Made by a program: the position numbers and the translations under genes
DNA from: an uncultured delta proteobacterium
Lineage (GTDB): Bacteria; Desulfobacterota; DSM-4660; Desulfatiglandales; Desulfatiglandaceae
Reading direction: 5' to 3'
NCBI GenBank assembly: GCA_963747015.1
Contig: CAVVEP010000018.1
Span: forward strand, 506-64,505
Length of the DNA: 64,000 bases
Notes under the pieces: generated by a model
Databases searched by the model: none
The model's input: the letters and a program-made list of their open reading frames with translations, nothing else
What the model was told of the DNA's origin: nothing
In this document: one piece after another, positions 8,496 through 61,423 of the stretch
Layout of the letters: every line of letters begins with the position of its first letter
Position numbering within the stretch: the first letter of the stretch is position 1

Positions 8496-8727
8496 TGCTA
8501 TCCTATTCAAATTTCCCGGCAGCGAAATAGGGAACCAGGAAGCCATTCCGTCACGAGGTCTTTTTTGCTGCCGCATCTGATTCCTATGGCAGCACCGGCC
8601 CTTCTATGCTGGTACGGAAAAATGGATGGACAATAATAGCTCCCTTGTACCAGCATAGAAGGACCTCTCCACGGATCGGTGGAGGTTTATCCAAGTTGCG
8701 GCAGCAAAAAAGACCTCGTGACTCCAT
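8496..8727 (-). repeat. Copy A of the ~232-bp nested-palindrome repeat family (inverted relative to copies B and C)
   Basis: The outer inverted repeat TCACGAGGTCTTTTTTGCTGCCGC (8551-8574) pairs with 8698-8722. The inner inverted repeat around 8597-8615 pairs with 8647-8668. The conserved tail TATCCTATTCAAATT lies at 8499-8513. About 85-90% of the arms are identical to the copies at 42305 and 45678. Confidence 0.85.
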
Positions 8728-8809
8728 TCGTACCATTGTTTTTGAAAGCAACCCCTCCAAAAAACCTTACGGTATCCCCTTTATCAATCCTTCCTGCCGA
8801 TTATTTATC

Positions 8810-22043: not shown

Positions 22044-24330
22044 TATTTCCTCCTCTTCATTTTCAAGGTTTCAAGGATCTTTTCCGGGGTGATGGGCAGT
22101 TCCATGAAGTCGACGCCTATGGCGTCATAGATGGCGTTGACAATGGCGGGGGCCGGGGCCAGCTGCGTGCCTTCCCCCGCCTCCTTGGCCCCGAACGGTC
22201 CCAGCGGATCGTCTGTTTCCACCTCCATGCGCTTCGATTTCGGGCATTTCCAGCAAAGTGGGAAAGCCGTAATCGAGAAACGAGGGGTTCATCACTGTCC
22301 CGTTTTCTACGATGACGTCTTCATACAGGGCCTGTCCCATGCCGCCCACAACGGAGCCTTCCAGTTGGCCTTCCACCAGCATGGGGTTGATGGCCCTGCC
22401 GCAGTCGTGGGCCGTGACCATCTTCAAAAGCTTTACTTTGCCGGTTTAAGGTCCACTTCGACTTCCGCGGCCTGGGTCATGAAGGAATAGTTGGGCGCGA
22501 AATTGCCGTTTTCCTTGAAGCAGGGTGGTGGGTTCGGTGGCGGGCGGCCAACCAGGAACCCCGGCCCACGATGGGCATGGGGAGGTCCGCATACTGATAG
22601 CCCTTTACGGCATCTTTCAGGCTCATTTTGATTTCTGGAGAGCCCTTGACGAATATCTCCCGGTTTTTGGCCACCAGGTCTTCCGGGCTGGCTTCCAATC
22701 TTGTCGGCCACGAATTCGAACAGTTTGTCTCTGGCTTCAACGGCCGCCAATCTTGCCGCGTTTCCGGCCCTGACCGTCACCCCGCTTCCGAAAGTGCCGG
22801 GATCGAGGGGGGTGACACCCGTGTCGGCGGCGGTTATCCGGATATCTTCCATGGGCACGCCCATGACTTCGGCAACGATCTGGGCGATTACGGTTTCCGC
22901 GCCCTGACCGATGTCCGCCGCCCCTGAAAGACGTTCACGGCCCCGTCCCGGCCCAGCTGCACCACCGAGCCGGAACTGATATGGCTCATGTTGCTGACTC
23001 CGCTTGGAAAAGAGGCCCCTGCCATACCCACGCCCCGGCCAAAGGGAAGCTTCCCTCTCTTTTCTTTCCATCCGATGGCGTCGGCCGCCATTTTTACGGA
23101 ATCGTAAAACCCGCAGGAATTGATGATGAATTTAGCCGGATGCGGCTCTCCGGCATGAATGCTGTTCTTCATGCGGATTTCGGCAGGGTCCACATTGATC
23201 CGTTCACCGATCATATCCAGTTGTCGTTCCACCGCGAACCGGGCTTGGGGAATGCCATGCCCTCGCATGGCCCCGCCCACGGGTTTGTTCGTGTACACGT
23301 GATACCCCTCGTACACAAGATTGGGCACATGATAGGGAATCATGAGAAAAAAGCAGGAAAGGGCGATCATCGTGGGAGCGGTGCTGTTGTAGGCCCCGCC
23401 ATCGGCATGGGCCTTGAATTGCTGTGCAAGGATGGTTCCGTCTTTCTTCACGCCCGTCTTGACCGTAAGATACATGGGATGCCTCTGTCGGGTGGAGATA
23501 AAAAGCTCTTCCCTGTCATAGACAAATTTGACCGGTTTCCCGAGCTTGCATGGCAAACCAGGCGGCGCAGAAATCCTTGGCGAACATATCGATCTTCTGG
23601 CCGAAACCGCCGCCCACCTTGGGCTTGATCACGCGAACCTTGCTTTCCGGTATTTGAAGGGTATTGGCCAGGTTTCTTCGAAGAAAAAAAGGGATCTGCG
23701 TTGAAGACCATACGGTCACTTCCTCTCTCAGAGAATCGTACTGGGCAACGGCGGCGTGAGGCTCCATGGGGGCGTGATTGACGGCCTGAGAGTAGAAACT
23801 GTCTTCAAAAACGAAATCACTTTCAGCAAACGCCTTTTCCACATTGCCGAATTCCTTGTGGATGGAGGGATATGTTGTTCGGGGCATTGTCGTGAACCAG
23901 CGGCGCACCTTCCTTGATGGCATCCAGCGGATCGAATACGGCCGGCAGTTCTTCGTAGTCCACTTTAATCAGTTCAATGGCCTCTTCCGCCATCTCCGGA
24001 TCAATGGCGCAGACGGCGGCCACATCATCGCCGATGTATCGAACTTTTTCCTTGGCGAGAGCGTATTCATCTCTGGCTTTGGGCACAATTCCATAAAGCC
24101 GGTCCGGAATATCCTTGCCTGTGACCACGCCCTTTACACCCGGCAGTTTTTCGGCCCTGGAGGTATCCACATGGAGGACCTTTGCATGGGCGAAGGGACT
24201 TCTCAGGATTTTCCCGTGAAGCATTCCGGGAAAGACAATGTCATCAGTAAACTGCGCACGTCCCTTTTGCCTTTGCAGCCGCGTCATGCATGGGCAGTCT
24301 ATGACCCACAACGTTCAATTCATTTTCCAT
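22043..24330 (-). pseudogene. Molybdopterin-binding large subunit of an aldehyde oxidase/xanthine dehydrogenase-family enzyme (4-hydroxybenzoyl-CoA reductase HcrA-like), broken into at least 8 frame segments.
   Basis: Homology-like sequence runs continuously through ORFs 23823-24311, 23516-23923, 22888-23556, 22433-23071, 22477-22740, 22125-22427 and 22043-22228. Motifs include GRAQFTDDIVFPGMLHGKILRSP, KPKVGGGFGQK, GGAMRGHG, GAADIGQGAETV and VTAHDCGRAINP. The start ATG 24330 follows the stop of the upstream gene directly. Confidence 0.8.
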
Positions 24331-24808
24331 TTATGCACCCTCCCCGGCCTGTTCGTTCACGCTCATCACCGCTTCAACAATTTTCTTGTAGCCGGTGCAT
24401 CGGCAGAGATTCCCTGCCATCTTCTTCTTAATGAATCTCCTCCGTGAGATGTTCCTCTTCGTTCAAAACAGCCTTGGCGGTCATAATCATTCCAGGGGTG
24501 CAAAATCCACACTGGAGTCCGCCCTTTTCCACAAAGGCCGTTTGAAGGGGATGGAGTTGACCGTGTTCTTCCATTCCTTCGATGGTCATGATCTCCTTGC
24601 CGACGGCGTCCATGGCAAGCATGATGCACGATAGAGCCGTCTCTCCGTTTATCAGCACGGTGCAGGCGCCGCAGGTCCCCATGTCACAGCCTCTTTTTGT
24701 ACCCATCAATCCCAGTTTATCCCGTAAGACCTCAAGAAGGGTGTTATTGGGGGAAACAAGCACTTCATGGTTGTCGCCGTTAATCCTCAGTTCGATAGCC
24801 GTTTTCAT
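24331..24808 (-). CDS. [2Fe-2S] small subunit (HcrC/CoxS-like). One frame break at ~24428.
   Basis: GCDMGTCGACTVLING and CGFCTPGMIM motifs in ORF 24428-24808. The C-terminal IKKKMAGNLCRCTGYKKIVEAV motif is in a shifted frame that ends at TAA 24331-24333. Confidence 0.8.
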
Positions 24809-33198: not shown

Positions 33199-33216
33199 CG
33201 GGGAGATGCCCTTTTT

Positions 33217-33262
33217 GAATGTAGTCATGAGGTCTTTTTGCTTGCCGCATCTTTGGATACGC
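33217..33262 (+). repeat. Partial copy D (left end only) of the 232-bp repeat family
   Basis: GAATGTAGTCATGAGGTCTTTTTGCTTGCCGCATCTTTGGATA aligns with the first ~45 nt of copies B and C (GAATGGAGTCATGAGGTCTTTTTTGCTGCCACATCTTGGATA). No right arm is present. Confidence 0.6.
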
Positions 33263-39579: not shown

Positions 39580-40643
39580 ATGATGAAGACTTACAAAATT
39601 GCTGTCATTGCCGGAGACGGCATTGGAAAGGAAGTGGTTCCCGAAGGGATACGGGTGCTTGAACAGGCCGGACGGAAATTCGGGATCAGCTACCAATGGA
39701 GAACATTTCCCTGGAGCTGCGAGACCTATGCAGCTACCGGGCGGATGATGCCGGAGGACGGAATGGATCAGCTCAGGGAATGCAATGCCATCTTCCTTGG
39801 CGCGGTCGGGTTTCCCGGCAGTTCCCGATCATATTTCCCTGTGGGGGCTCCTGATCCCCATCCGACGGGAGATGAACCAGTATGTCAATCTGCGTCCGGT
39901 TCGATTGCTGAAGGGGATTACCTCCCCCCTGCGGGATCGCGGACCTCAGGACATCGATTTTGTGGTGGTGCGGGAAAACAACGAGGGCGAGTACTCCCAG
40001 ATCGGGGGACGACTCTATTCGGGCACCGATGCCGAGTTGGTCCTTCAGGAATCGGTATTTACCAGACGGGGCGTAGACAGGATCCTTCGCTATGCCTTTG
40101 AGCTGGCCCGTTCCCGCGAAGCCAAACATGTCACCTCCGCCACCAAGTCCAACGGAATCATCCACACCATGCCTTACTGGGACGAGCGATTCAGAGGCAT
40201 GGCCTCCGAATACCAGGATATCCGGACGGATCAATACCACATCGACATCCTTACGGCCAATTTTGTCCTTCACCCGGACTGGTTCGACGTGGTGGTGGGA
40301 AGCAACCTTTTCGGGGATATCCTGTCCGACCTGGGCCCGGCCATTGCCGGAACCATCGCCATGGCGCCGTCCGCCAATATCGATCCCACCCGTCAGATAT
40401 CCCTCCATGTTTGAACCCGTTCACGGCTCCGCTCCCGACATTGCGGGGAAAGGCATCGCCAACCCCATCGGGCAGATCTGGGCCGGCGCCATGATGCTCA
40501 GCCACCTGAATCATCCGGCGGCGGGCCGAGCCATTGAAGAGGCCATTGAAGAGGTCCTGGAGGACCTTGCCCTTCGAACCCCCGATATGGGGGGAAAAGC
40601 AACGACAAAGGAAATGGGAAAAGCGATCGAGGAGGCCCTCTGA
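39580..40643 (+). CDS. Tartrate dehydrogenase/decarboxylase-like member of the isocitrate/isopropylmalate dehydrogenase family. Two frame breaks.
   Basis: YKIAVIAGDGIGKEVVPEG, LGAVGFPG | VPDHISLWGLLIPIRREMNQYVNLRP, VVRENNEGEYS, NLFGDILSDLG, and | YPSMFEPVHGSAPDIAGKGIANP. Breaks lie at ~39820 and ~40397. The three ORFs are collinear. Confidence 0.85.
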
Positions 40644-40863: not shown

Positions 40864-42276
40864 GTGGAAATAAAACAGAACGTTGGAACTCTTTCAGGGA
40901 ACTCCAGTGAAACTTCCCCCTTTCAGATACGGAACATCCGGCTCTTCATAGCTTTTCGGGTCTTTTTCAATTTCCGTTTTTACTATCCGGTCTTCGCCAT
41001 CCTTTTTCTGGACTTCGGGCTGACACTCGAACAGTTTGCCCTGCTCAACGTAATGTGGGCCATGACCATCGTCGTCCTCGAAGTACCTTCCGGCGCGCTC
41101 GCCGACACCATCGGCAGGAAAAACCTGCTCGTCTTTGCCGGGGCCTGCATGGTGGTGGAGATAGCGCTTCTCTGTTTCGCCCCTTTGGGAAATCCCCGAC
41201 TCCTTTTTTTTATTTTTCTTGCCAATCGCGTTTTGAGCGGCAGCGCCGAGGCGGCAGCCAGCGGCGCGGATGAATCGCTGGCGTACGACTCACTCAAAAA
41301 GGAAGGGGATGTAAACGACTGGGGCAAGGTCCTGGTCAGGCAGATGGGGGTTCGTTCCATCGGGTTCTTTGTGGCCATGAGCCTGGGGGCGGCGGTCTAT
41401 GACCCCGCGCTGTTGCAGCACCTGGCGGATTGGTTGGGCATGAAGATCTCTCTGACCCAGGAGATAACCTTGCGATTTCCCCTTTATCTAACACTCGTCT
41501 CGGCGATCGCAACCCTTTGCATTACTCTGGCCATGAAACGACTCACGCCTCAAGAATCAGCGGGAAAGGACTTCAAAGAAAAAGGCGCCCAATCCCTTGC
41601 AAACGCCCTGAAACTGACGTTCCGGGCAGGGGCATGGATATTGAAAACCCCCTTTGCCCTCGTCATTATCGCAACGGGTCTGATCTTTGACCATGTCCTC
41701 CGTATGATGATTACGCTGAGCAGCCAATACTACAGGCTGATCGACCTGCCGGAATCCTTGTTCGGCGTGATTGGGTCCGGTCTGGCCCTCCTGGGCCTTT
41801 TTATCCCTCGCCTCGCTTTGAAACTTGCCGCGAAACATACCCCCGCCTTTAATCTGGGGATCATGGCGATTATCACCCTTGCAGGATTTCTGGGAATCAC
41901 AATGTTTCTTCCCATCCTGGGGTTGATTCCCATGATCCTGCTTTCCAGTGTTATGTTTTTTCTCAGCTTTTTCGTAAGCCACTATCTGAACCGGATAACC
42001 GATTCCGCCCGGCGAGCCACTGTATTGAGTTTCAAGGGGTTATCCTATAACCTGGCCTACGGACTTATCGGCTTGTCTTATTCCCTGCTTTTAAGCATGC
42101 TTCGATCCCGCGCCTCGCAAACGGATGCGACCCTTGTCGGACAGGAACTTGAAAACAGGGTCTTCATGCAGTCCATGGATTGGTTTCCATGGTATTTCAT
42201 CGGAGCCATCTCCATTCTTCTGGCCTTTGCGGCATGGCAATTGAGGAATTCAGAGGAACATCAAAAGATCGGCTGA
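40864..42276 (+). CDS. MFS-type transporter
   Basis: 470 aa with 12 predicted TM segments and a GALADTIGRKN loop motif. GTG start uncertain. Confidence 0.7.
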   Translation: MEIKQNVGTLSGNSSETSPFQIRNIRLFIAFRVFFNFRFYYPVFAILFLDFGLTLEQFALLNVMWAMTIVVLEVPSGALADTIGRKNLLVFAGACMVVEIALLCFAPLGNPRLLFFIFLANRVLSGSAEAAASGADESLAYDSLKKEGDVNDWGKVLVRQMGVRSIGFFVAMSLGAAVYDPALLQHLADWLGMKISLTQEITLRFPLYLTLVSAIATLCITLAMKRLTPQESAGKDFKEKGAQSLANALKLTFRAGAWILKTPFALVIIATGLIFDHVLRMMITLSSQYYRLIDLPESLFGVIGSGLALLGLFIPRLALKLAAKHTPAFNLGIMAIITLAGFLGITMFLPILGLIPMILLSSVMFFLSFFVSHYLNRITDSARRATVLSFKGLSYNLAYGLIGLSYSLLLSMLRSRASQTDATLVGQELENRVFMQSMDWFPWYFIGAISILLAFAAWQLRNSEEHQKIG

Positions 42277-42304
42277 TCATGTCTTATTCAAGAATCCTGG
42301 CAGG

Positions 42305-42536
42305 AATGGAGTCACGAGGTCTTTTTTGCTGCCACGTCTTGGATAAACCTTCACCGACCGTTGAGAGGCCCTTTTATGCTGGTGCAACGAAACCCCTTGC
42401 GTTAAATCCTATTGTCCGTACCATCATAGAAGGGCCGGTGCTGCCATAGGAATCAGATGCGGCAGCAAAAAAGACCTCGTGACGGAATGGTTTTTCCGGG
42501 TCATTATTTTGCTACCAGGAAATTTGAATAGGATAC
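42305..42536 (+). repeat. Copy B of the ~232-bp nested-palindrome repeat family
   Basis: The outer inverted repeat GTCACGAGGTCTTTTTTGCTGCC (42311-42333) pairs with 42460-42482. The inner arms are degenerate. The conserved tail ends AATTTGAATAGGATAC at 42536. Confidence 0.85.
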
Positions 42537-42597
42537 GGCTGATCCATGATCGGGATGTTCCCGTATTCCGATGCGCCCGGTTTACTTCCCGTCTCCT

Positions 42598-44103
42598 TTA
42601 TGCCGCTTTTTTCAGGATTCCGGGAGAATTCGTCAGAGGTCTTGGCGAAACAGGCATGGAATGCACGTTGCCCGAAGACAGCTCTCTGGTCAACCAGCCG
42701 GTTTTCTGGGGCGTGATCGAGGCATAAAGGGCAATCCACCACAAGCCCGTTACCGAAAAAACACTGTAGGCAAACGCCCATAAAGCATCGCTGCTGCGAT
42801 AGCGGTAGATGAAAAACAAAAAGGGAAGGAGGCCTGCCGACACCGCGCCCAACAGCATCCGCATGCCCAATATCTCCGGCATGGATACAAGCCATCCAAG
42901 CAGGACCAGTTTCATGCACTGGCCCACGGTCAGGCTCATGAGACCCAACAGCAGGTTGATGCGCGCCCCCAGCATGGGTCCTTTTCGAAACGGAGTGAAC
43001 GCGAACCGCGTCAGCACCAGGGTCTCCCGGATATTGCTGCGGGCCCAGCGGAGGAACATCTTGCACAAGCCCCGGTACCCGGTGGGCGCCTTGGTGTACA
43101 CCACCGCGGTACTCTGAAAATGGACGTAATAGCCCAATTTCAAAATCATATTGGTCATGGCCCGGTCTTCGCCGATGTTGGCCGGACGCCCCAGGAACTT
43201 CTGATAAATCCACTGGGGCAATACCTGTCTCACCAAGTCGCTTCGATAGGCCGACAAGGCCCCCGGACTGCACATGACGGTGTTGACCATGCTCTGGCTG
43301 ACCCTTAAAAAATCAAAGGAAAACGCGAAATTGACATCCAGCATCCGCGGAATAACACCCTCATTCAGGTTGAGAATCCTCACATTTCCCGCCACCGCGC
43401 CCACCTTTTCATTCTGGATGAAAGGGGCCACCAGACAGCGGATGGTTTGAGGCTCAACCTGGGAGTCGCTGTCAATGGTGACAAAAATCTCGCTCCGGCA
43501 ATGTCTGAAGCCGGCAAAAAGGGCACGCCGCTTCCCTTGGTTTTTGGGCATGCGGATCGGCGTGATGCGGCCCGGCATCTCCCGCGCCGCCTGCTGAATC
43601 CAGAACCAAGTATCATCCTTGCTGCCATCGTCAACGGCGACGATGTTCAGCTTTCCCGCGGGGTAGTCGCTTTGGGCAATGCTTCGAAGGGTATCCAGCA
43701 CCTGCCGTCCTTCGTTATAAGCGGGCACGATTACGCCACAGGTAGGCAATTTTTCGTCCAAACACAGGGGCGCAGGGCGATATTTCAACACCAACGCCAC
43801 GCGCCAAATCAAGGTCAAAACGAATAGGACCAGCGAGACCTTGAAAGTCACGAGCAGCATTCTTCCCAACGGACCCGAGAAGACCAGATGACCGGAGCCT
43901 TTCTGTATAAAGACCAAACTGACGATAAACGCCACACATACAAGGATCAAGATCTTTGCGGCCGGATCATGGATACCGTGTTTGCGGCCGGGGAAGGAAA
44001 TAGAAGACCTGGAAATGGGCGTCTCGGAAACGCCGTTTTTCAGCGGTTCGTCTAATTCGCCCTCCTTTTCGGAAAAGGATTTATCTGCCACAATTATATT
44101 CAT
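42598..44103 (-). CDS. Processive family 2 glycosyltransferase (cellulose/chitin/hyaluronan-synthase-like polysaccharide synthase)
   Basis: VIVPAYNEG, VAVDDGSKD, QGKRRAL, TIDSDS, GEDRAMT and a LRWARS (QxxRW-like) motif, with flanking TM helices. Confidence 0.85.
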   Translation of the reverse strand: MNIIVADKSFSEKEGELDEPLKNGVSETPISRSSISFPGRKHGIHDPAAKILILVCVAFIVSLVFIQKGSGHLVFSGPLGRMLLVTFKVSLVLFVLTLIWRVALVLKYRPAPLCLDEKLPTCGVIVPAYNEGRQVLDTLRSIAQSDYPAGKLNIVAVDDGSKDDTWFWIQQAAREMPGRITPIRMPKNQGKRRALFAGFRHCRSEIFVTIDSDSQVEPQTIRCLVAPFIQNEKVGAVAGNVRILNLNEGVIPRMLDVNFAFSFDFLRVSQSMVNTVMCSPGALSAYRSDLVRQVLPQWIYQKFLGRPANIGEDRAMTNMILKLGYYVHFQSTAVVYTKAPTGYRGLCKMFLRWARSNIRETLVLTRFAFTPFRKGPMLGARINLLLGLMSLTVGQCMKLVLLGWLVSMPEILGMRMLLGAVSAGLLPFLFFIYRYRSSDALWAFAYSVFSVTGLWWIALYASITPQKTGWLTRELSSGNVHSMPVSPRPLTNSPGILKKAA

Positions 44104-44445
44104 TATTATTTTTTCCTTGTAATTAAGAGATGGTAATTCGCATTGTTTTCATCCATAATCACGAATGCGTGCCTATAAAAAACCCGCCCCTGTAGTTCTT
44201 AGAGCGTTGCATGCGCCTCTTTCCCGACCTACGGAGCAAAGGCCATGCGCTGTTAATAGCAAGAGTTATGCCGTCTTGGCGACTTCCTCTTCCCGATGAA
44301 AAAGATCCGTATTTCTGATGGTTGATTACATCAGGGCGGTGCGGCAAAAAAGCGTTGTAGGAATCCGCGGTTCCGAATCCGAAGAAAAGAGATACGGCAT
44401 TTCTCAATTTTCCCGGATTTTTTCGACAGGTTTTAAAGGTCTTCT

Positions 44446-45573
44446 ATGGATGGAATAAAAAAGAATCCCATGTACCGGTTCCTGCTGGTTCTCACCATCA
44501 GTTCAACGGTCGGTCTTCAGACCTGGATGATCCTTTTCAACAATTTTGCCGTGGAAAACGTCGGTCTCTCCGGGGAAAGCATCGGGATCATCCAATCCGT
44601 GCGGGAAATACCGGGATTTCTTACCTTCCTGGCGATCTTCGTGATGTTGCTCATCAAAGAGCACCGTCTTTCAGCCATTTCCATCGTCACATTGGGTCTG
44701 GGCCTGGGGGCAACGGGGTTGTTTCCTTCACGCTCGGGATTGATCGTTACTACCATGATTTTCAGCCTCGGGTTTCACTATTACGAGACAACCAACCAAT
44801 CCCTCACCCTCCAGTACTTTGACAAGACCAGGTCTCCCTGGGTCTTCGGAAAACTGCGCAGCATAGCCGCGGCATCCAACATTGCCATCGGCATCGCCAT
44901 TTATCTTCTCTCCACTCTCCTGGATTTTGCCCAGACATACCTTTGCGTAGGCGTCTTCATTCTTGCGGCAGGCATCTGGGGACTCCTGCAGAATCCTTTG
45001 GACAAAACCATCATTCCCCAGAGAAAGCGCCTTGTTTTCAAAAAAAAGTACTGGCTTTTCTACTTCCTTTCGTTCATGGCGGGCGCCAGGCGCCAGATAT
45101 TCATAGCCTTTGCCGTATTTCTCATGGTCAAGAAATTCCATTTCACGGTTCACGAAGTCACCATCCTGTTCGTAATGAACAATGTGATAAACTATTTTCT
45201 CAGTCCGTTCATCGGCAAAAGCATCATACGGTATGGAGAGAGAAAAGTGCTCTCGCTGGAATACTTTAGTCTTATATTCATCTTTTTGGCGTATGCAATG
45301 GTGGAGACCAAGATACTCCTTGGCGCTCTCTATATCCTTGACCACATCTTCTTCAATTTTGCCATCGCCATCCGAACCTATTTCCAGAAAGTGGGGGACC
45401 CCAAAGATATCGCCCCCAGCATGGCGGTGGGTTTCACCATAAATCATATTGCGGCGGTGTTCCTTCCCGCCCTCGGAGGCATGCTGTGGATGGTCGATTA
45501 CCGCATTCCCTTTGTAGCCGGCGCCTGCATGAGCGTGGTTTCTCTTGCGGCGGTTCAAAAGATCCGGACGTAA
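44446..45573 (+). CDS. MFS-like membrane transporter
   Basis: 375 aa, multi-pass hydrophobic protein. Confidence 0.65.
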   Translation: MDGIKKNPMYRFLLVLTISSTVGLQTWMILFNNFAVENVGLSGESIGIIQSVREIPGFLTFLAIFVMLLIKEHRLSAISIVTLGLGLGATGLFPSRSGLIVTTMIFSLGFHYYETTNQSLTLQYFDKTRSPWVFGKLRSIAAASNIAIGIAIYLLSTLLDFAQTYLCVGVFILAAGIWGLLQNPLDKTIIPQRKRLVFKKKYWLFYFLSFMAGARRQIFIAFAVFLMVKKFHFTVHEVTILFVMNNVINYFLSPFIGKSIIRYGERKVLSLEYFSLIFIFLAYAMVETKILLGALYILDHIFFNFAIAIRTYFQKVGDPKDIAPSMAVGFTINHIAAVFLPALGGMLWMVDYRIPFVAGACMSVVSLAAVQKIRT

Positions 45574-45677
45574 CTTCCGATCGCGGAATATTTATCCCGC
45601 TTGAATTCGGGATGCATTTCCTGTAAGAAAGCACCTTTGAAAGAATTTTCACGTATCTTATTCAAAAATTCCGGCAG

Positions 45678-45909
45678 AATGGAGTCATGAGGTCTTTTTT
45701 GCTGCCACATCTTGGATAAACCTTTACCGACCGTTGAGAGGTCCTTCCATGCTGGTACAACGAAACCTATTGGATTCCCAGCGATTCTTTCCGTACCAGC
45801 ATGGAAGGACCGGCGCTCCATAGGAATCAGATGCGGCAGCAAAAAAGACCTCATGACGGAATGGTTTCCCGATGCTGTATTTCGCTGCCAGGGAATTTGA
45901 ATAGGATAC
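45678..45909 (+). repeat. Copy C of the ~232-bp nested-palindrome repeat family
   Basis: The outer inverted repeat GTCATGAGGTCTTTTTTGCTGCC pairs with GGCAGCAAAAAAGACCTCATGAC. A perfect 19-bp inner inverted repeat, GGTCCTTCCATGCTGGTAC with GTACCAGCATGGAAGGACC. Conserved tail to 45909. Confidence 0.85.
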
Positions 45910-45973
45910 GATAAAATACGTTTTGACGGCCTGTCAACGAGTCAATGCGTGGAAATGAGGAGGCAAAAACACG

Positions 45974-46843
45974 TTGGAAAAAGTCATTATAGACGGAGTG
46001 GAACTCCACCTGAGCGAACCCGATGAAGTGCCCATGCGCTGGGTTGGCCAGCAAGATCTGATTACACAGGTCCTGGCCGCATGGCTGGTTATCGGAGACG
46101 AAGATTTTGCGCTGAGTCCCAGGCTGGTGGGCAAACCCGGCGTAGGAAAGACAACCCTGGCCTATCATGCCGGCCGCTCGCTGAATCGACCGGTCTACCT
46201 TTTTCAGTCCACCATGGACACCCGGCCTGAAGACCTCATCATCACGCCCGTTATTTCGGAAAAAGGGAAAATAAAATATGTGGCGAGTCCGGTCGTCTCC
46301 GCCATGATCAAGGGCGGCATCGCCGTGGTGGATGAAGGGAACAGGATGAGCGAAAAGAGCTGGGCTTCCCTTGCTCCCCTCCTTGACAGCAGACGGTATG
46401 TGGAATCCATTGTAGCGGGAATCAAGATCAAGGCCCATCGGGAATTTCGTTTCTGCACCACCATGAACGATGATGCCAGCACTTTTGAACTGCCCGAATA
46501 CATCCATTCCAGACTTCAGCCCCGGATCTATCTCGATTTTCCGGAAAGAGAAGAGGAACTTCTGATTTTGAAAAGCAACCTTCCGTTTGCGGATGACGAT
46601 ATCCTGGATTATGTGGTGGATTTTCTCCAGGCCGCGCACGGCGCGGACGAACGATATTCCGTACGAGACGGCATAAACATCGCCCGTTACGCACTCAAGC
46701 GACTCTCCGCCTTTGAAAATGAGGAGAATGACCGGGATGGAACGCCCGATACAACGCGATTCCTCAAGGAGGCCGCTTCCATGATTCTGGATAGTTCCGC
46801 ATCCGACTATTTTTCCGAGCTGATTGATGGCGCCGACCAGTAA
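45974..46843 (+). CDS. AAA+ ATPase, AAA_5 type (CbbQ/NorQ/MoxR-like)
   Basis: Walker [10 protein letters not shown] and Walker [17 protein letters not shown]...SRL sensor region. About 290 aa, as in CbbQ/NorQ. TTG start. Confidence 0.8.
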
Positions 46844-56107: not shown

Positions 56108-56334
56108 GGTACTATGATTTTTTCATACAACAGTAACCAATCATCTGATTCTGCAGGAAGATGACGTAATACCCAAATCAGGCTTGGTCCTAACTTCGCA
56201 CATTTAGACGAAGAACGATAAAAAGAAAGTTCGATTCGAGAAAATGCGGGACATTTTAAGTTCGATCTGATATGAGAAAATAGGTGAGCGCTAACTAACT
56301 TACGGCCTGGGGGTCGGGATAGAAGTGCAGCGCG

Positions 56335-56974: not shown

Positions 56975-57302
56975 CAAAACTATCCCGGTAATGCAACTTC
57001 AACCGGGTATTTTTTCTCGGGGCTGCAGTCATTCACTAATGTTCAGGCTCCCATCGCCATCGGCGGATAGACCCCCAGGTTGCACCCACCGCTGAAGATC
57101 TAAGTCTTCATAGCAGCCGGGCCGTTTACACCACGCATAGTCTGGTTGATTACTTGCCCCAGAATGTGGTATCGCTACGTATCCGACACGAGCAACTGAT
57201 ACGGCTGGACTTCCACCAGCTGGATTGCAGCCTTGTCGGCCGCTCCGACGTCCATAAAATTATTAAATTGATGGCGACCGTTCCTTTTGGTATGTTTTCA
57301 GC

Positions 57303-57913
57303 ATGCTCAGACAAGCCCGAATCGACGCGCCAGGTGCTCTCCACCACACCATCATCAGGGGGATTGAACGAAAACAAATCTTTCAGGATGATTTGGACAG
57401 GGATGATTTCCTGAACAGAATAGGTAATATACTGCGTGAATCCAAGACCGGATGCTACGCGTGGGTCTTGCTGCCAAATCACGAACACATTCTGCTTCGA
57501 ACGGGGCTTGTTTCCATTGCCGCGATCATGAGGCGGCTTCTTACCGGATGCGCAAGAGGATACAATCACCGTCATCGTAGACACGGGCAGCTTTTCCAAA
57601 ATCGCTACAAATCCATTCCGTGCCAGAAGACGCGTATCTCCTTTAATTGGTGCGATAATCATCTACCACCAGCAGAGCTGGTGGTTTAATGTAAGGCAAT
57701 TACCTGAATCCGTTGCGTGCGAAGGTAGTGAAAGACCTCAAGGAGTTGGAGAAGTATCCGTACTCGGGGCATGGAATTCTTGTGGGAAAAGAAAAAAACG
57801 ATTGGCAGGATGTTGGTTATGTGCTCGGATATTTCGGCCCAGATTTTGGGATAGCTCGCAGGCGATTGCCGACAAAAATGGCTTTCAAGTTCTGGACGAA
57901 TGATATTTTATGA
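57303..57913 (+). pseudogene. RAYT / IS200-like Y1 (HUH) transposase, decayed (frame breaks, stops, small hairpin insertion)
   Basis: MLRQARIDAPGALHHTIIRGIERKQIF...LLPNHEHILLRTG...RHRRHGQLFQNRYKS, then CQEDAYLL*LVR* in a shifted frame. A roughly 40-nt insertion follows, then NYLNPLRAKVVKDLKELEKYPYSGHG. Confidence 0.7.
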
Positions 57914-60009: not shown

Positions 60010-60271
60010 ACACTGACCAGGGCTGTTGACGGACTCGATTCCCTTGCCCAAAGCCCCCCGTTATTCGCGACGCCAGTGAACGAATTCGGCCTTGTTTCAA
60101 TTTACAAACCGAGCCTCATACTTGATCCTTTCATATAAATTCCACCTTTCATTTTTCCGCTTGACGTGGTACTGTTCGCCCCTGTTTTGACGATGGATCA
60201 ACTGATTAGACAAACAAAATTGAACCACCAGCCGGAAACGGTTGCGAAAATGGATGGAACAAGGAGCGTAC

Positions 60272-60896
60272 ATGGGCCTCATATCCGGATCCGGGAGCTT
60301 TACCCGGTATATTGTGGAAGGCGAGCTGGAAGATAATTTTTTGGGAACCCTGTTTGAAAGGATTTCCCCATACCTCTTTCGGGATCTGGACGAAAACTCC
60401 CTGGAAGGACGCAGCATGGGGTGGGTGAACATCATGGACATGTTTGATAGCCGATTTTCGGCCCTCGAATTTTTGAAGGAGCCGTACATTGCCATGACTC
60501 TGCGGATTGATGAAAGAAAAGTTCCGCCCTACGGCATTGAGGCAGCACTGCCTTGAAGCGGAGAACCGGATTAAAAAGGAAGAGAACCTGGATTTTCTCT
60601 CAAGGACAAGACGATCGGAGATCAAGGAGGCCGTCCAGATGCGTCTCCTCAAAAGGGCCATTCCCGTTGCCAGGACCTATGACATGATCTGGAATTATTC
60701 CACCGGTTTTGTTCTGTTCGGCGGCATCAACAACAAACTGTGCGACGAATTCGCGAAGCTTTTTCTTCAGACATTCGATTTGCATCTCCAGGCGGTCTGC
60801 CCCTACACCCTTGGCAGCCGGTTTCTGGAAAAAGAAGGAACCTCTCCCGAACTCCTCGACTCCCTCACCCCTTCTGACTTTACGGAGGAAAATTAG
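60272..60896 (+). CDS. RdgC-family (recombination-associated) protein. One frame break at ~60530.
   Basis: AAGGAG RBS at 60261-60266. SMGWV, RIDERKVP | TALRQ..., and SRTRRSEIKEAVQMRLLKRAIPVARTYDMIW parallel the E. coli RdgC layout (MGWV, RKEEKILP, ..KDEVLHSLLPRAF..MMWID). Confidence 0.6.
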
Positions 60897-60898
60897 GT

Positions 60899-61423
60899 AT
60901 GCAACTGCTGGAAAAAGTAACAAAGACGGAATTTCTTGGAAGGGAGTTTTTGGCCTGGCTGTGGTTCAGGGCGGAAACAGAGCAGGGCGTTTACGACCTT
61001 TCAGAAGGTGCGAAAGCGGATCTCTGGCTTGATGGCCGCATAACGCTTCAGGGAGAAAACGAAAGAGGGGTGGAAACCATCACCTGCACAGGGGAAGCCC
61101 AGAACATGAAAGAAGCCCGTTTTGCCTTGGCCGAAAGCAAAGGAATCACGCAGGCCATGATCAAACTGGGTATCGGCGACAATCAATGGTCCTTCACCCT
61201 TGATTCCACCTGGATGAATTTCAGGACACTCAAGACACCCCGAGTCATGCAGGACAAGAAAGACGACCCGGATGGCCTTTTCTACGAAAAAATTTTCCTC
61301 ATTGAAGAGGCCGTGGCCGCCATGGATGAAATCTATGCCTATTTCGTGAAATTGCGGTTTTCCCCGGAATGGAACGACCAGGAATTACCCGCACTCAAAA
61401 AATGGATCGGAGAAGGAAAGTAA
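60899..61423 (+). CDS. Hypothetical protein, possibly a second RdgC-like module
   Basis: The start follows the previous stop by 2 nt. FLGREFLAWLWFRAE N-terminus. No firm family assignment. Confidence 0.4.
   Translation: MQLLEKVTKTEFLGREFLAWLWFRAETEQGVYDLSEGAKADLWLDGRITLQGENERGVETITCTGEAQNMKEARFALAESKGITQAMIKLGIGDNQWSFTLDSTWMNFRTLKTPRVMQDKKDDPDGLFYEKIFLIEEAVAAMDEIYAYFVKLRFSPEWNDQELPALKKWIGEGK

Follow-up and report, generated by a model that had tools for sequence, protein, structure and literature searches.

The window, by which we mean the whole 64,000-nt stretch of DNA that was analysed, carries three full-length copies (A, B and C) and one fragment (D) of a dispersed repeat (Table 1). All copies of the family are intergenic and stand between ordinary genes; in the window, their neighbours are AcrB-like/PFOR, MFS/GT2 and MFS/AAA_5 genes. 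A preliminary description of this DNA had placed copy A (on the minus strand), copies B and C and fragment D correctly, but had drawn their boundaries too narrowly: it gave the repeat a length of ~232 bp, while the true length is ~255 bp, and about 25 nt to the left of its starting point proved to be conserved in copies B and C as well. With up to three mismatches allowed, the window contains seven sites that match the outer-stem 18-mer GAGGTCTTTTTTGCTGCC, where 0.08 are expected from shuffles; the seven are both arms of copies A, B and C plus fragment D. Solo left-end remnants like fragment D are also present at MAG loci. Copy B landed exactly at the end of the upstream MFS gene (40864-42276, MFS_1): the duplication flanking the copy, GGCTGATC, holds the TGA stop (42274-42276) of this gene, which was left intact.

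Table 1. Copies of the repeat in the window and the parts of which they are composed (positions counted from the first letter of the window)
Feature	Position	Strand	Remarks
Copy A, full-length, older	8499..8754	-	nhmmer positions 8-255, 281 bits
Copy A outer stem	8722-8694 / 8578-8550	-	
Copy A inner stem	8665-8647 / 8615-8597	-	
Fragment D, linker and left arm of outer stem	33216..33260	+	model positions 25-68, nhmmer E = 1.6e-5
Copy B left target-site duplication GGCTGATC	42271..42278	.	8/8 identical to 42537-42544
Copy B, full putative MITE, 258 bp	42279..42536	+	nhmmer model 3-256, 283 bits; folds end to end as RNA and as DNA
Copy B left terminal inverted repeat ATGTCTTATTCAAGAATCCTGGCAG	42279..42303	+	complementary to 42512-42536 at 18/25
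Copy B outer stem, left arm GTCACGAGGTCTTTTTTGCTGCCACGTCT	42311..42339	+	helix 2, 97.4% paired, 40 copies
Copy B inner stem, left arm	42367..42385	+	helix 3, 97.5% paired
Copy B apical loop, subfamily-specific	42386..42417	+	loop type common to L038, L077, L087, L016
Copy B inner stem, right arm	42418..42436	+	
Copy B outer stem, right arm AGATGCGGCAGCAAAAAAGACCTCGTGAC	42455..42483	+	
Copy B right segment without partner, GGAATGG then variable spacer	42484..42511	+	91% vs 56% identity
Copy B right terminal inverted repeat CTACCAGGAAATTTGAATAGGATAC	42512..42536	+	
Copy B right target-site duplication GGCTGATC	42537..42544	.	
Copy C, full putative MITE, 257 bp	45653..45909	+	nhmmer positions 1-256, 264 bits
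Copy C terminal repeats	45653-45676 and 45885-45909	+	
Copy C outer stem	45684-45712 / 45829-45857	+	
Copy C inner stem	45740-45758 / 45793-45811	+	

The repeat is bounded by an imperfect terminal inverted repeat of 25 bp; the left terminus has GTATC and the right one GATAC. In the family consensus, the left end GTATCTTATTCAAAAATCCTGGCAG agrees at 22 of 25 positions with the reverse complement of the right end, GTATCCTATTCAAATTCCCTGGCAG; the termini GTATCYTATTCAAA and TTTGAATARGATAC stand in inverted orientation to each other. The right end, CTGCCAGGGAATTTGAATAGGATAC, forms the last 25 nt of a conserved tail that had been described as one-sided and as foreign to a simple MITE. The tail is not one-sided, since these 25 nt are the inverted repeat of the left terminus, which had been overlooked. 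Only about 35 nt on the right side are left without a partner; within them, the copies are 91% identical over GGAATGG, and the spacer, with a pairwise identity of 56%, is the most variable stretch of the element. In copy A, the left terminus is degenerate and reads GGGTTGCT in place of GTATCTTA. Full copies align to positions 13-267 of the 291-nt query.

Inside the termini, direct reading of the copies bore out both nested inverted repeats of the preliminary description. Pairwise identity is 76-78% in the terminal repeats versus 83-93% in the internal core, with the unpaired internal loops conserved at 83-88% and the outer stem at 92-93%, a value biased upwards by the use of an outer-stem 18-mer to recover the loci. 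A core better conserved than the termini would be unusual if the termini alone mattered, and it counts against a plain MITE reading. The apical loops had been said to differ completely between copies. They are in fact alignable (mean pairwise loop identity 64%) and fall into a few recurring subfamily types; no two of copies A, B and C share a type, and all three types are met again in other genomes. Within the left internal loop there is also a side hairpin (CTTCAC...GTCGAG versus CTCCAC...GTGGAG), which is likewise subfamily-specific and is mismatched in most copies.

Among the copies found with nhmmer, the profile always scored about 270 bits on the better strand and about 80 on the other; thus, the element has a polarity. 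As RNA, copy B folds at -99.6 kcal/mol, compared with -71 kcal/mol for shuffles (z = -6.0), and its opposite strand folds nearly as well, at -98.3 kcal/mol. As DNA, it folds end to end at -54.7 kcal/mol (z = -6.6), with the terminal repeats paired. By eye, a GGAAT/GAATGG motif can be seen four times in direct orientation in the element, at columns 26-32, 178-182, 215-220 and 255-259 of alignment A2 (about 42304-42310, 42448-42452, 42485-42490 and 42518-42522 in copy B). Three of the four sites are more than 88% conserved, and the motif may be a subterminal binding site of the transposase.

The distribution of the repeat was determined by scanning one genome per species with the 18-mer, which yielded at least 92 loci. 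Among the matches listed, real copies came from two assemblies only, CAVVFZ01 ("uncultured delta proteobacterium MFD01721.bin.1.133") and JBBSAR01 ("Desulfatiglandales bacterium La6_metabat2.031"), and the other matches, in other phyla, lay inside genes and were due to chance. By profile search, at least 31 full and at least 19 partial copies were counted in CAVVFZ01, at least 6 full and at least 11 partial copies in JBBSAR01, and 3 full copies and 1 partial copy in the window. The window belongs to neither of the two MAGs; with CAVVFZ01 it has a single stretch of 1.3 kb in common, at ~85% nucleotide identity. The order Desulfatiglandales is placed in Thermodesulfobacteriota. Metagenomes were scanned with a pattern from the internal loop, which is independent of the outer stem, and gave six further copies from sediment metagenomes; these came from three projects, with Baltic Sea samples among them. 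Two other metagenome matches, L093 and L095, were rejected as chance 20-mer matches in coding-like DNA.

These further copies in related genomes and metagenomes agree with the view that the repeat is a dispersed family. An Rfam search of the whole window at gathering thresholds gave no match, and over 42200-46100, at E up to 10, it gave only chance-level matches with E of 0.35 or worse. No match was obtained by blastn against plasmids and phages or in two scans of viral contigs. At first sight, three copies in one window could have come from a local segmental duplication, or from chance palindromes confined to the window. Such an origin now has practically no probability, given more than 70 copies and fragments at unrelated loci of two other genomes and of metagenomes, each copy with a different flanking 8-bp duplication. 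In keeping with what had been noted for the window, the copies have no fixed orientation relative to neighbouring genes: the gene upstream points the same way as the element in 18 copies and the opposite way in 20. Many of the copies in the other genomes are found 0-30 nt from the ends of ORFs.

The search for target duplications proposed in the preliminary description was productive. In 14 of 40 full copies, the 8 nt abutting the two termini are identical at 8/8 positions; seven others agree at 7/8, and about five more are perfect if the boundary is moved by 1-5 nt. Three of the four complete, flanked metagenome copies have perfect duplications as well, and the fourth matches at 7/8. By chance, an 8/8 match would be expected with a probability of ~1.5e-5 per copy, or about once in 65,000 copies. 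The duplicated 8-mer differs at every site, with no consensus and no fixed flanking motif. In the window, the flanks of copy A lack a target-site duplication and those of copy C contain no recognisable one; the old age of both copies would explain this, as missing duplications are then expected.

No empty site was recovered, the synteny between the window and L065 stopping after 1.3 kb; for copy B, the empty-site junction (left flank, one 8-mer, right flank) is expected to read ...AAAGATCGGCTGATCCATGATCGGG... Several insertions occupy matching positions in the two MAGs, in regions that are 83-94% identical, and therefore some insertions predate the species split. One pair of matching sites, L082:3852-4107 and L010:6595-6852, lies in an 83%-identical region of the two MAGs, yet the two copies belong to different subfamilies, their loops differing by 47% and four compensated stem pairs being different; paralogous regions, independent insertion or copy replacement could be the cause. 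The family also leaves decay products, namely solo ends and internal-deletion derivatives. The latter are ~75-146 bp long (L052:619-714, L081:4009-4154 and L030:1834-1908) and have retained the two terminal repeats together with intact 8-bp duplications (GCATTTTT, CTTTCTAC); some of the deletions fall between short direct repeats such as GGCAG. In one copy, L043:4745-5224, an unrelated palindrome of ~273 bp is inserted (L043:4786-5058); its arms consist of GGTTTCAGG / CCTGAAACC repeats, and it is not multi-copy in the fetched loci.

Together, the features of the repeat agree with the definition given in the literature for prokaryotic MITEs (PMC10969869; PMC3184786). Against an upper length of 500 bp, full copies measure 251-261 bp from GTATC to GATAC. 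The terminal inverted repeats, at 25 bp, lie in the range of about 4-30 bp, and the flanking direct repeats, which differ from copy to copy, are the 8-bp target-site duplications. The element encodes no transposase and holds no conserved ORF, and it is scattered over unrelated loci in many copies, with no fewer than 40 full and some 30 partial ones in three genomes, plus those in metagenomes. The sole recurrent ORF inside the repeat, which is ATG-initiated, varies from 1 to 77 aa among copies and meets a stop by codon 24 in about half of them. On account of this variation in length, and of a stop at codon 4 in copy C, we rejected a small-protein reading of the 47-aa ORF found in copies A and B, where it begins with ATGGAG and ends with CCATAG.

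We conclude that the dispersed repeat is very probably a non-autonomous DNA transposon, a MITE of ~255 bp. The family is real and abundant, and it is a previously undescribed MITE of a Desulfatiglandales clade. It is of the ordinary selfish-DNA kind, and its sole trait above the ordinary is the combination of strong arm-to-arm co-variation with a core better conserved than the termini. It adds a lineage-restricted MITE family to the poorly studied uncultured sulfate reducers of the Desulfatiglandales, and it can be used in repeat masking and assembly of these MAGs and as a marker of strain-level variation.

In the mechanism that we propose, a transposase encoded elsewhere would bind the terminal repeats and act in trans, and the element would enter a target site at which the two strands had been cut 8 bp apart. 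Once the staggered ends were repaired, the 8-bp direct repeats would be left. Insertions would be tolerated in intergenic DNA, often directly at gene ends. We infer that the mobilising enzyme is a DDE-type transposase provided in trans; duplications of 8 bp are typical of IS1595, ISL3, IS6, IS66, IS256 and ISAs1-like enzymes. Neither a parent element with these terminal repeats nor its transposase was found in the window and ~760 kb of fetched loci. The search for terminal-repeat pairs at longer spacing returned only MITE-sized pairs, and all-against-all blastn of the loci for long repeats returned only orthologous regions. The ORFs adjoining solo ends were leuC, leuD and an Fe-S protein, with no transposase there, and a Pfam scan detected none in 34 window ORFs or in the four ORFs between the two L099 copies. 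The repeat is a lead towards a transposase with an 8-bp stagger.

The palindromic architecture and the many intergenic copies would also suit a REPIN-like element, an inverted REP pair moved by a RAYT (Y1/HUH) transposase, and the preliminary description had raised this hypothesis together with putative decayed RAYT genes in the window. In a check that was not exhaustive, no such genes were found: none of the 34 window ORFs has a Y1_Tnp domain in Pfam, and tblastn of the window with an IS200 TnpA query gave no match. The hypothesis is moreover contradicted by the 8-bp duplications and the 25-bp terminal inverted repeats. Single-strand transposition of the HUH/Y1 type (IS200/IS605, RAYT) is not known to produce such duplications or terminal repeats. 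The two features therefore exclude REPIN/RAYT and IS200/IS605 (PATE) origins, and we give a REPIN-like identity only a very slight chance.

The same distinctions hold for the known systems as such. REPINs share with the repeat short palindromic intergenic structure, many copies and non-autonomy, but they lack DDE-type terminal inverted repeats and target-site duplications and are tied to a RAYT gene, whereas here duplications are present and no RAYT was found. PATEs, which derive from IS200/IS605, are likewise small, non-autonomous and hairpin-rich; however, they have no terminal inverted repeats and no duplications and insert 3' of a fixed tetra- or pentanucleotide, none of which fits the repeat.

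Relatives in kind can be named among prokaryotic MITEs: QMITE2 of Coxiella burnetii, Correia of Neisseria, Nezha of cyanobacteria and Chunjie of Geobacter. Like them, the repeat is shorter than 500 bp, has terminal inverted repeats and target direct repeats without a transposase gene, occurs in many intergenic copies and folds as a whole into a long stable stem-loop. QMITE2, with direct repeats of 7-9 bp, terminal repeats of 23-29 bp and a core of 113-145 bp (PMC10969869), comes very close in architecture. The likeness meant here is one of description, and there are differences: the host is an uncultured member of the Desulfatiglandales, and the repeat has a core that is better conserved than its termini. 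A further parallel is bcr1 of the Bacillus cereus group, a MITE-like element with flanking direct repeats and with compensatory stem changes that keep a cruciform-like structure (PMC3184786). It is ~155 bp long, has 5-bp direct repeats and is transcribed, whereas the repeat described here is ~255 bp long and has 8-bp duplications.

Next, we turn to the co-variation of the stems. The substitutions that had been reported as mirrored on the two arms, CACGAGG/CCTCGTG versus CATGAGG/CCTCATG and TCTATG/CATAGA versus TCCATG/CATGGA, are as described; in the alignment, copy C has compensatory pairs at 37/209 (U:A) and 100/158 (C:G). For the whole family, co-variation was assessed in a MAFFT alignment (A2) of 40 full copies and compared with 500 shuffles. 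In the outer stem of 29 bp, 97.4% of the cells are paired and eight pairs changed on both sides; in the inner stem of ~19 bp, 97.5% are paired and six pairs changed on both sides. In the 'helix' formed by the terminal repeats, 82% of the cells are paired and three pairs changed on both sides. Over the whole structure, 17 pairs and 57 cells changed on both sides, compared with 9.8 pairs and 20 cells in shuffles, and none of the 500 shuffles reached the observed values, a significance that is overstated because the copies are related. Compensatory changes are significant in 14 stem pairs, as had been suspected from the window copies, and the terminal repeats are without co-variation. At columns 102/156, three Watson-Crick pairs alternate, U:A in 24 copies, G:C in 10 and A:U in 3. 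At columns 37/209, C:G is found in 30 copies, U:A in 5 and G:C in 2; the change from C:G to U:A may mark a parallel mutational hot spot, because there is a CpG on both arms. Given this difference between terminal repeats and internal stems (82% versus ~97% paired), the former behave as two protein-binding sites would, and the latter as a maintained structure.

The stems are kept paired far better than independent mutation allows. Among copy-specific changes, 8 are double and complementary and 41 are one-sided, while independent mutation, as estimated from the one-sided rate, predicts ~0.1 double changes. The cause is either selection on the hairpin or hairpin-templated correction. In case of selection, only lineages that are folded or palindromic would go on proliferating. 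In case of correction, template switching in the hairpin would let one arm serve as the template for the other. Since compensatory changes in MITE stems have already been reported for bcr1, the co-variation is a refinement and not a new principle. The excess of paired substitutions, one of them at an orthologous locus, offers a natural data set for hairpin selection versus hairpin-templated mutation.

A mechanical origin, in which replication template-switching in an imperfect palindrome copies a mutation from arm to arm, is an established bacterial process in quasipalindromes. It contests selection on the hairpin and not the identity of the repeat as a MITE, and we put its likelihood somewhat below an even chance. 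The ratio of double to one-sided changes is what it would produce, and an A:T to G:C double change at 58/188 separates L081 from L089, which are matching sites in the two MAGs. The copy-specific single changes also have no strand bias. However, variants counted as copy-specific may belong to unsampled subfamilies, the copy numbers being lower bounds, and an excess of G:U among shared variants is unexpected from a strand-symmetric conversion.

This excess was measured on the strand that reads from the left to the right terminal repeat. Over all cells of the two stems, G:U was counted 58 times and A:C 22 times, while the terminal-repeat helix, which served as a control, is unbiased (74 versus 66 cells). 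Counted as distinct variants, the stem numbers are 24 and 15 (p = 0.2), and as copy-specific changes, 9 and 10. Thus, variants inherited by several copies lean mildly to G:U on the left-to-right strand. From the parity of the copy-specific changes, individual copies seem to decay neutrally; between the two MAGs, orthologous copies have diverged at roughly the rate of the DNA that flanks them.

The stem G:U excess over an unbiased control bears on a second alternative, by which the copies would be structured small RNAs or cis-acting RNA modules: the nested hairpin would be the selected product and mobility would be secondary, or a means of dispersal. The 14 compensatory pairs, the three Watson-Crick pairs at 102/156 and the well-conserved unpaired loops are also what such RNAs would show, and the transcribed bcr1 MITE with its compensatory changes is a precedent (PMC3184786). 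Against this, the G:U bias shrinks when distinct variants are counted and is absent from copy-specific changes, the orthologous copies diverge like flanks, and the two strands of copy B fold equally well. The element has no match in Rfam, and neither a conserved promoter (sigma-70-type) nor an intrinsic terminator was found inside it; nor does it have an orientation bias relative to genes. No observation here requires a functional RNA, and we regard this alternative as quite improbable.

A slightly better chance, still a low one, may be given to the broader proposal that selection acts on the internal nested hairpin as a module of one single strand, whether RNA or single-stranded DNA, and that the hairpin is not passive filler. 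It is suggested because the core exceeds the terminal repeats in conservation, 14 stem pairs co-vary and those of the terminal repeats do not, and the shared variants lean to G:U on the left-to-right strand. If true, a structured RNA with a function may be carried through Desulfatiglandales genomes by the MITE, or the MITE may depend on a folded single-stranded intermediate for its transposition or persistence. Such an intermediate is not expected of a transposon that makes 8-bp target duplications.

Several other observations were made in the window. Five ORFs of 150-210 aa, 57150-57662 (-), 60206-60661 (-), 60899-61423 (+), 39773-40408 (-) and 23844-24431 (+), have no Pfam match at E = 0.1, and none of them supports decayed RAYT genes. 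Short ORFs and gaps are unusually many at 53.5-62 kb. The ORF at 22888-23556 (-) aligns to the molybdopterin-binding domain MoCoBD_1 over profile positions 116-243 only, and looks like a truncated or fragmented molybdoenzyme gene; its region is 85% identical to L065. Finally, a non-coding stretch of 125 nt (56178-56302) has no Rfam or tRNA match and is 90% identical to L059:7800-7925 (CAVVFZ01), well above its surroundings, and it could be a conserved small RNA or a regulatory leader.
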